A stretch of DNA of 64,000 nt. It comes from Mustelus asterias (taxonomy: Eukaryota). The stretch is taken from the NCBI RefSeq assembly GCF_964213995.1, contig NC_135803.1, forward strand, positions 35,774,001 through 35,838,000. The letters run 5' to 3'. Positions within the stretch are counted from its first letter, which is position 1, and the number at the start of each line of letters is the position of its first letter. A program made the translations under genes and the position numbers. Below the pieces are notes generated by a model that was given only the letters and a program-made list of their open reading frames with translations, did not search any database and was not told the origin of the DNA. Shown piece by piece: positions 1,403 to 2,300 of the stretch.

Positions 1403-1718
1403 TTTTTTTTTTGTTTCTATTCCAATTCAATCAAATCCAGTCCAATTCAGAGTCTCAACAAGTTGAGACATTCCCGATCCAACCTGACAAGACAGGGCTT
1501 TCACCTCCTGTCTTGGGCTTGATCTACATGATCCAAGCTGATTGGAGTAGGCATAGCTCCTCCTCCAAGGCTTGATCTAATTTGCATCTCAGCCAAAAGG
1601 CCGAGATGCCGCTTTTAAAAATTGCTTCAAATGAAGCTAAAATGTAACCTAATAACTTCAACCAAGCACAGCATGTCAATACTACACTTGATCTTAGCCA
1701 AAAGGCCGAGAAGCTGAT
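1403..1718 (-). mobile_element. U2 snRNA-headed structured retroposon (SINEU/Keno-like) with an A-rich tail
   Basis: 1679-1718 matches U2 nt 1-39 (ATC[A]GCTTCTCGGCCTTTTGGCTAAGATCAAGTGTAGTAT), followed by a non-U2 body with four hairpins and an A10 tail at 1403-1412. Confidence 0.8.
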
Positions 1719-2009
1719 GGGTTTCAGGATATTACAGGGGCAGATGCTGTAATGCTGTGATTCAATGTAACTGCCAGAATGGCGCACCTACCAATTTCCT
1801 TCCATCCCCAGGAATTTGAACATATATCCACCCTGGTATGTTCCGCTATTATGCTGTTGTGGTGTACTCACCAGAAATTTCATTGTGTCTCCCTTGCCTC
1901 CAGTACTTTGCAACTACTAACTAACTAATCCATATCATTCTTCTTGTAAGTTGAAACTTACAGGTCTAATTTCTCCACAGCCTGATATATTCATAGATTC
2001 CATGCTGTG

Positions 2010-2300
2010 CAGAAGGAGGCCATTCGGCCCATCAATTCTACACCGACTCTTCGACAGAGCATCCTACCCATGCCCTTTCCCCGTAACCTTATGTATTTAC
2101 CCTGCTAATCCCCCTAACCTATACATCCTAGGACACTAAGGGACAATTTAGCATGGCCAATCCACCTACCCTGCACACCTTTGGACTGAGAGGAAACTGG
2201 AGCACTTGGAAGAAACCCACGCACATTGAGAATGTGCAAACTCCGTACCAACAATCACCCTGTGAGGCAGCAGTGCTAACCACTGTGCCACCATGCTGCC
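2010..2300 (-). mobile_element. HE1-type SINE with CR1-derived tail
   Basis: Reverse complement of the tRNA head and V domain; tail GGGCCGAATGGCCTCCTTCTGCAC. Confidence 0.85.

Follow-up and report, generated by a model that had tools for sequence, protein, structure and literature searches.

What is a sequence that opens with the 5' end of U2 snRNA and then departs from it, and how does an element with such a borrowed head come to be transcribed and moved? The question is raised by positions 1403 to 1718 of a 64,000-nucleotide stretch of Mustelus asterias DNA (contig NC_135803.1, positions 35,774,001 to 35,838,000; hereafter the window). An earlier note, made from the letters alone, had proposed that this is a dispersed copy of a non-autonomous element resident in a U2 gene. 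In the excerpted text of Kojima (2015, PMC4494074), short elements of comparable make-up, termed SINEU, are confined to crocodilians and their mode of transcription is an open question, because snRNA promoters lie upstream of the transcript and are lost on retrotransposition; template switching of a LINE reverse transcriptase onto U2 snRNA is proposed there for the crocodilian families.

We report an analysis of the window copy, of its relatives throughout the genome and of the U2 gene arrays. The reading that we favour, and hold with good confidence, is that the window holds a dispersed copy of a U2-headed family which is likely to be transcribed from the promoter of U2 genes and to be moved by the enzymes of a Keno-like LINE.

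Anatomy of the window copy

The interval 1403..1718 (minus strand) is a whole copy, 316 bp in length, of a non-coding retroposon, and is identical to the majority sequence of its subfamily at 97.4% of positions (8 differences). The head, internal stem-loop, hairpins and A10 tail that had been described before are all present on the minus strand at the same positions, and the copy can be divided as follows.

1679..1718, minus strand: U2 head, corresponding by sequence comparison to U2 nt 1-39
1645..1674, minus strand: antisense arm, an imperfect reverse complement of U2 nt 11-39
1624..1637, minus strand: small hairpin, the length of which differs among subfamilies
1613..1623, minus strand: conserved single-stranded U-rich stretch, roughly where U2 has its Sm site
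1584..1609, minus strand: internal copy of U2 stem-loop I, closed by three extra pairs
1528..1581, minus strand: long hairpin module 1, with conserved stems and a hypervariable terminal loop
1476..1524, minus strand: long hairpin module 2, a duplicate of module 1
1452..1469, minus strand: short 3' hairpin
1413..1451, minus strand: 3' end built of short reiterated motifs
1403..1412, minus strand: A10 tail

Within the head, positions 1714-1679 are identical, over all 36 bases, to nt 4-39 of the U2 gene of this genome and include the branch-point recognition sequence (1685-1680). The region behind the head had been taken for an AT-rich spacer of about 70 nt; such a region is present, though it is not unstructured, as 1674-1645 form the arm, which with the head gives a predicted 25-bp hairpin interrupted by two 2x2 internal loops and containing many G-U pairs. 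The internal copy of U2 stem-loop I is likewise real, with 21 bases of the family majority identical to U2 nt 7-27 and the loop unchanged in 40 of 40 aligned copies, whereas its perfect 11-bp stem is not a trait of the family: it results from a private A-to-G change at 1590, and the subfamily majority keeps U2's own mismatch. Both of the hairpins that had been described as framed (1530-1577 and 1476-1524) are borne out, and their modules resemble one another more closely than do 500 of 500 shuffles. The predicted fold of the 316 nt has a z-score of -5.4 (equally stable shuffles, 0 of 100).

We considered and rejected the possibility that the copy is a divergent U2 gene. It scores 53 bits against the Rfam U2 model where real U2 genes score 176-190, similarity to U2 ends at nt 40, with no sign of stem-loops II-IV (beyond it, 63-290 of 500 shuffles reach an equal score) and the body has no Sm motif in any of 105 full-length copies. 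The canonical Sm motif contains a G, and the U-rich stretch at 1613..1623 lacks it. An Rfam search of the window, with scans of 12 loci, returned U2 only and no ribozyme.

No target-site duplication was detected at the window copy, the longest word common to its two flanks being 5 nt. The upstream flank of the main U2 array has no match anywhere in the window, and near -60 only 8-10 of 18 bases agree with either U2 flank or with U1 flanks. This single copy is probably inert. Some 270 bp upstream of it lies a common SINE-like repeat (window 1990-2300), and the window has 12 BLAST matches to a similar repeat, an insertion of about 350 bp, that interrupts ORF2 of a LINE in one U2 array unit (L051).

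A young family of several thousand copies

A genome-wide search (3.68 Gb) yielded 2,591 candidates; the 40 that were scored are all near full length, the 39 besides the window copy at 95-97% identity. The junction of head and body, for which sharing among copies had been proposed as a check, occurs exactly 684 times in the window subfamily (reversed control, 0), and an internal motif has 5,736 matches at no more than one mismatch (reversed control, 0). These counts rule out a single-copy, chance fusion of a U2 pseudogene. A sample of 40 loci, drawn along C1 and then C2 from the 100 junction places listed (of 684) with loci sampled earlier left out, has a mean identity of 95.3%; 32 of its copies begin within nt 1-10 and 20 have target duplications of at least 9 nt, compared with 13 of 1,560 mismatched pairs. 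Copies are about 315-345 bp long with an A-rich tail, and grouping of the 105 distinct full-length ones at 9% distance gives 18 clusters, the main difference between them lying in the hairpin loops. In the majority sequence of the window subfamily the head agrees with the genome's U2 gene at 40 of 40 bases.

This is a young, non-coding retroposon family of several thousand copies, and a true family with a shared structure as opposed to a sum of independent chimeric retrocopies. Public DNA or unclassed sequencing runs of five organisms, one of which may be the source of the assembly, contain 90-97% of the sampled words, which suggests that the family occurs in a wider range of organisms. None of the runs listed as containing the words is classed as RNA, and six presumed RNA runs, with 52-83% of the words, were left out of account. 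An inverted head or an inverted partial duplicate is found at L075 (1070-1689) and L087, and A-to-G changes make up 10 of the 15 changes in the inverted L075 copy.

The same copies bear on the possibility that this is an ordinary RNA polymerase III SINE, whose A and B boxes would derive from pieces of U2 and whose residence in U2 genes would be a by-product of LINE targeting. Judged by the consensus motifs that we take to define these boxes, an exact A box lies in the internal stem-loop of 101 of the 105 full-length copies and an exact B box somewhere in 90. Against this, U2 origin together with stem pairing also explains the box-like letters, and in 103 of 105 copies stretches of four T or longer occur three times or more, one such stretch standing directly before the A box. 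A start set by the A box would leave headless copies, contrary to what is seen: among 35 matches of an unselected sample none begins at nt 100-125 and 31 begin within nt 1-23. Nor does a polymerase III origin predict the array flank found at some 5' ends (below), and we regard it as improbable.

The U2 arrays and a Keno-like LINE

C24 carries arrays of intact U2 genes, in units of 1,833 bp and 8,035 bp, and a variant type (176 bits) forms a tandem array of 448-bp units on C21. The 8,035-bp unit harbours a LINE that encodes a zinc-knuckle ORF1, an APE endonuclease and a reverse transcriptase, begins with U2 nt 5-35 and ends in an A-tail; it has U2 nt 38-191 behind it and U2 sequence up to nt 58 in front, and so occupies a fixed U2 site. 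Keno was reportedly defined by Kojima and Fujiwara in 2004. By its anatomy, which is that described for Keno in the excerpted literature (PMC4494074; PMC4640811), we call the element Keno-like; a look-up in the Atlas gave it general endonuclease names only. Insertion of Keno and Utopia near this position of U2 had been stated in the earlier note, and in this genome the Keno-like LINE uses the same base as the short element; the base number given for the site is taken from the Mustelus asterias genome, not from the Keno and Utopia papers. The tail motif of the LINE has 602 exact matches in the genome, so its specificity is loose.

Several further features of these regions may be recorded. The segment C24:44.81-44.94 Mb (L038-L052) is a tandem amplification of the 8,035-bp unit, that is, of intact U2, LINE and U2 remainder. 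The variant U2 genes (L108-L113, L117 and L118; C21:28.05-28.08 Mb) share about 90% identity with the main type and have an intact Sm site, and their array is heavily invaded by the LINE and by the short element. Pieces of the variant array with its whole spacer occur on C1, C8, C14 and C7 (L102, L105, L107 and L115) joined to LINE ends, and these displaced pieces may be transduced promoters. A U1 5' fragment, matched by eye, lies immediately upstream of a U2-headed LINE remnant (L053, 3640-3720), and beside the end of the U2 array (L099, 5557-8907) are open reading frames that look, on inspection, like gag, RT and integrase and would belong to a Gypsy-like LTR element.

Family copies inside U2 genes

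At ten places the family tail stands directly before U2 nt 39-52, two of these (L064 and L067) retaining at most the last 40 bases of the element. Another of the ten, L066, is in the main array; it follows a LINE tail and shows a duplication of U2 nt 38-52. One copy stands behind a complete main-array flank (600 bp, 95% identical). The variant flank meets the start of U2 at 19 places, where it leads into the family body ten times, into intact U2 four times and into the LINE five times; among the ten family copies, the spacer, about 260 bp long, is complete in four (L102, L105, L107 and L109) and three have a long U2 remainder behind them (L105, L106 and L109). As these insertions lie before U2 nt 38 and directly behind a gene flank, the gene's own nt 1-39 serve as their head.

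The proposal of a dispersed copy of a non-autonomous, U2-resident element is upheld at the level of DNA, since the element is multi-copy and has relatives inside U2 genes. A search of the U2 flanks, as had been suggested, gave copies with the gene's upstream flank on one side and U2 from nt 38 on the other, but no promoter motif above chance: the two U2 flanks have 12 of 18 bases in common near -62, which does not exceed chance matches elsewhere, they contain no octamer, and no motif common to the U1 and U2 flanks rises above chance. Two candidate U2 insertions, L177 and L180, have only 7-8 U2-like bases after the tail and were excluded. Start sites should be measurable at C24:43060526, C21:28064521, C8:80287717, C14:62230133 and C1:80334604.

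Dispersed copies that carry array sequence

The variant-U2 flank is also found on dispersed copies, where it extends over about 85 bp (L103), 165 bp (L114), 35 bp (L116) and, in the twins L119 and L120, 13 bp, with nothing further of the array beyond it. In the window subfamily, three copies have U2 nt 40-49 upstream, and one of them, L176, has U2 up to nt 54 together with the last 7 bases of flank, twice, within its target duplication. Another copy, L060, has U2 nt 38-58 after its tail, within a 13-bp duplication. By way of L176, L057, L175 and L059 the window subfamily would be tied, indirectly, to the U2 arrays. Such array flank can be regarded as a 'receipt' of origin in a U2 array, and 5' extensions that begin before +1 imply, for some of the templates, an RNA read through from the array unit in front.

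It is here that a second alternative must be weighed, according to which copies are transcribed passively from unrelated upstream promoters (introns, other elements) and the LINE reverse transcriptase renews their heads when it switches template onto U2 snRNA. This would account for the pure U2 additions at 5' ends, which stop at varied positions between nt 43 and nt 54 (L057, L103, L116, L119 and L175), and some 5' additions could indeed be switches to U2 RNA instead of transductions. It would also sit well with the small number of copies that touch a U2 gene, only about 20 among thousands, and with the window subfamily, of which no promoter-bearing copy was found among the ten variant-flank copies and the one main-flank copy. 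The array flank, which makes up the 5' extensions recovered in targeted searches, is not explained by template switching. The junction is, moreover, fixed in 684 copies, starts cluster at U2 nt 1-10, and, LINE tails, common repeats and other family copies apart, 30 copies have no further 5' flank in common. We give this explanation a slim chance, scarcely better than that of polymerase III. Transcription from the U2 promoter, presumably by polymerase II, appears to us the probable course in view of the flank transductions and of residence in U2 genes; the promoter would be regained on return to such a gene.

A probable partnership with the LINE

One target duplication is common to three family copies and one LINE end at L055, and another to two family copies and one LINE end at L056. 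Of the 100 listed junction places, 3 (C1:70608453, C2:144515822 and C3:101473195) have an exact LINE tail in the same orientation no more than 100 bp upstream, against an expectation of 0.0008, and in a sample of 114 copies 5 stand behind a LINE tail and 13 behind a family tail. Behind the tails of these 114 dispersed copies we found no U2-like sequence (1.65 of 6 bases agree, as against 1.65 in the control). From the shared site and shared duplications we consider mobilisation by the Keno-like LINE highly probable.

The probable partnership is not reflected in sequence similarity. A match of the 3' end to a Tx1/Keno 3' UTR had been put forward as a check, and none is significant, 177 and 212 of 500 shuffles reaching equal scores. 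Nor does the LINE 5' UTR match the body significantly, the best match being 12 of 14 bases, which 53 of 1,000 shuffles equal.

RNA fold and predicted masking of the head

The fold was studied in an alignment of 40 copies that covers the clusters and includes four from the window subfamily. The consensus contains the head hairpin, the internal stem-loop I, the two long modules and the 3' hairpin, and over its 70 pairs 97.7% of cells pair, compared with 25-43% when the partners are slid. On covariation, which had been suggested as a check, nearly all stem changes are one-sided: both sides have changed in just one of the 70 pairs, in module 2 (A-U 11, G-U 9 and G-C 19 of 40). Shuffle controls on the fold gave modest results: for three measures 5-22 of 500, and for the two others 438-484 of 500. 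Pairing is kept by 19 of the 21 variant types common to at least three copies as against 24 of 73 private types (Fisher p = 2.5e-6; random expectation 30%), a comparison that is favoured by the structure having been drawn from the same sequences and in which shared types are not independent events. In the head hairpin alone 9 of 11 shared types keep pairing, and the loops of the three long hairpins are 4-9 times more variable than their stems. Variation among the copies shows selection on the stems.

In the subfamily majority five of the six branch-point bases have a predicted unpaired probability of 0-0.06, and four of six are predicted to be paired in a U2-resident chimera, whereas in real U2 they are open (0.89-1.0 for five of six, predicted). 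The LINE does something similar: its first 15 bases pair with U2 nt 14-29, leaving a 2x2 loop at nt 23-24, where the short element has one too. A U2 head with a short arm is present in the LINE at L051 (1975-2035), L052, L098 (8755-8815) and L104, and LINE copies on C21 lack 11 nt of the arm (L111, L113, L117 and L118). Masking of the head would keep the chimeric RNA from working as a faulty U2, and since the LINE 5' end forms a similar hairpin, the hairpin is perhaps a signal to the LINE protein; we see roughly an even chance that either of these, protection of splicing or a protein signal, is the purpose of the masking. The internal stem-loop I may be an older head, possibly retained because the new head is folded away; that it guides or decoys the LINE protein, as the earlier note had suggested, is conjecture. 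In L120, one of the copies with variant flank, 12 of 13 changes from its nearest relative are A-to-G (median excess among 106 copies, 0), a pattern typical of the editing of double-stranded RNA, which we read as probable A-to-I editing of the folded RNA prior to insertion.

Selection on stems could also mark a variant gene of snRNA-like type that has been domesticated for a cellular role, such as antisense regulation of U2, and of which the dispersed copies would be retropseudogenes. Such a gene might use the arm in trans, where the predicted duplex with U2 reaches -28.6 kcal/mol, and the conserved single-stranded U-rich stretch near the Sm position would suit it. The arm is, however, consumed in cis by the element's own head, the canonical Sm motif and U2 similarity beyond nt 40 are lacking, as set out above, and a selfish element would fit better with the many coexisting subfamilies, whose loops are swapped (18 clusters in the 105 copies), and with the A-tailed insertions found where the LINE inserts. 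We judge domestication very unlikely, the least favoured of the alternatives.

Proposed life cycle

The life cycle that we favour has four steps. The LINE and the short element insert before U2 nt 38, and a few copies, as the DNA attests, stand behind the flank of an intact gene. RNA polymerase II acting from the U2 promoter, or reading through from an upstream unit, would then produce an RNA of head, body and A-tail, sometimes with U2 sequence behind the tail. In this RNA the predicted pairing of arm and head would take the place of U2 stem-loop I and cover both the branch-point sequence and the sequence that pairs with U6. Finally, as the anatomy of the insertions suggests, the LINE protein would reverse-transcribe the RNA at loosely specific target sites, leaving thousands of promoter-less copies, that of the window included, while rare returns to U2 genes would found new subfamilies.

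A fuller version of this cycle, in which the invaded U2 genes are the sources of the SINE and the chimeric RNA is matured and re-imported in the manner of an snRNP, the promoter being regained at each return, is more speculative and to our mind doubtful. In this version the transcript would have the U2 5' end in front and the U2 Sm site and 3' half behind, it would be rendered harmless by the head-masking hairpin, evolved by LINE and SINE each for itself, and the promoter would be regained either by return to a U2 gene or by a carried array spacer. We give this version as a whole less than an even chance.

Comparison with known systems

In the open literature, judged mostly from listings, we found no U2-headed SINE outside crocodilians and no non-autonomous partner of Keno. 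The present family would extend SINEU-type elements past the crocodilians, would provide a non-autonomous partner for a LINE that targets U2 and would show an RNA fold selected to conceal a borrowed splicing signal. To the question of Kojima (2015) it offers an answer at the level of DNA, namely that re-insertion into a U2 gene at the LINE site restores the promoter.

The nearest known systems differ from it in separate ways. The Drosophila R2 and R2/R1 SIDEs are, in the excerpted account, short non-autonomous elements that reside in rDNA, are co-transcribed with it and depend on a site-specific LINE (Eickbush and Eickbush 2012, PMC3414825). Residence in a multicopy RNA gene is a likeness to the present family, and so, probably, are co-transcription and the use of a site-specific LINE. 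SIDEs are there described from rDNA as internal deletions of their LINE that are freed by a ribozyme (PMC3414825), whereas the present family has no detectable similarity to the UTRs of its partner, keeps the 5' end of the host RNA as a head, has no Rfam ribozyme and is spread genome-wide.

Keno and Utopia, as far as the excerpted texts describe them (PMC4640811; PMC4494074), resemble the LINE of this genome in the APE endonuclease, insertion in U2 and a fixed 3' junction. The many copies outside U2 (the 602 tail matches) recall the loose specificity of reptile Utopia, and the duplication of U2 nt 38-58 by the LINE is near the 20 bp reported for that element in the same texts (PMC4640811; PMC4494074). 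Keno and Utopia are LINEs, whereas the present family is non-coding and has no significant UTR sequence in common with its LINE.

SINEU comes closest. The excerpted text of PMC4494074 describes SINEU-1, -2 and -3, like the present family, as short and non-coding, with a U2-derived head, internal U2 pieces, an A-tail and oligo-T runs, and reports recurrent addition of snRNA fragments at the 5' end, tandem insertions with a common target duplication and a likely Tx1-clade partner with an snRNA head of its own. The present family has the features by which SINEU is recognised, namely a U1/U2-derived 5' head, a length below 500 bp, non-autonomy, poly-A and target duplications; the insertion site and duplications that it shares with the APE LINE bear on the identity of a putative Tx1-clade partner, for which this LINE is a candidate. 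SINEU is reported there to prefer a DNA transposon, Mariner-N4_AMi (PMC4494074), whereas the present family lies inside U2 genes behind their flank, has dispersed copies that carry array flank and hides its head with an antisense arm. By comparison with the published descriptions, it is a SINEU-like family with a proposed life cycle different from, and more informative than, that of the crocodilian families.
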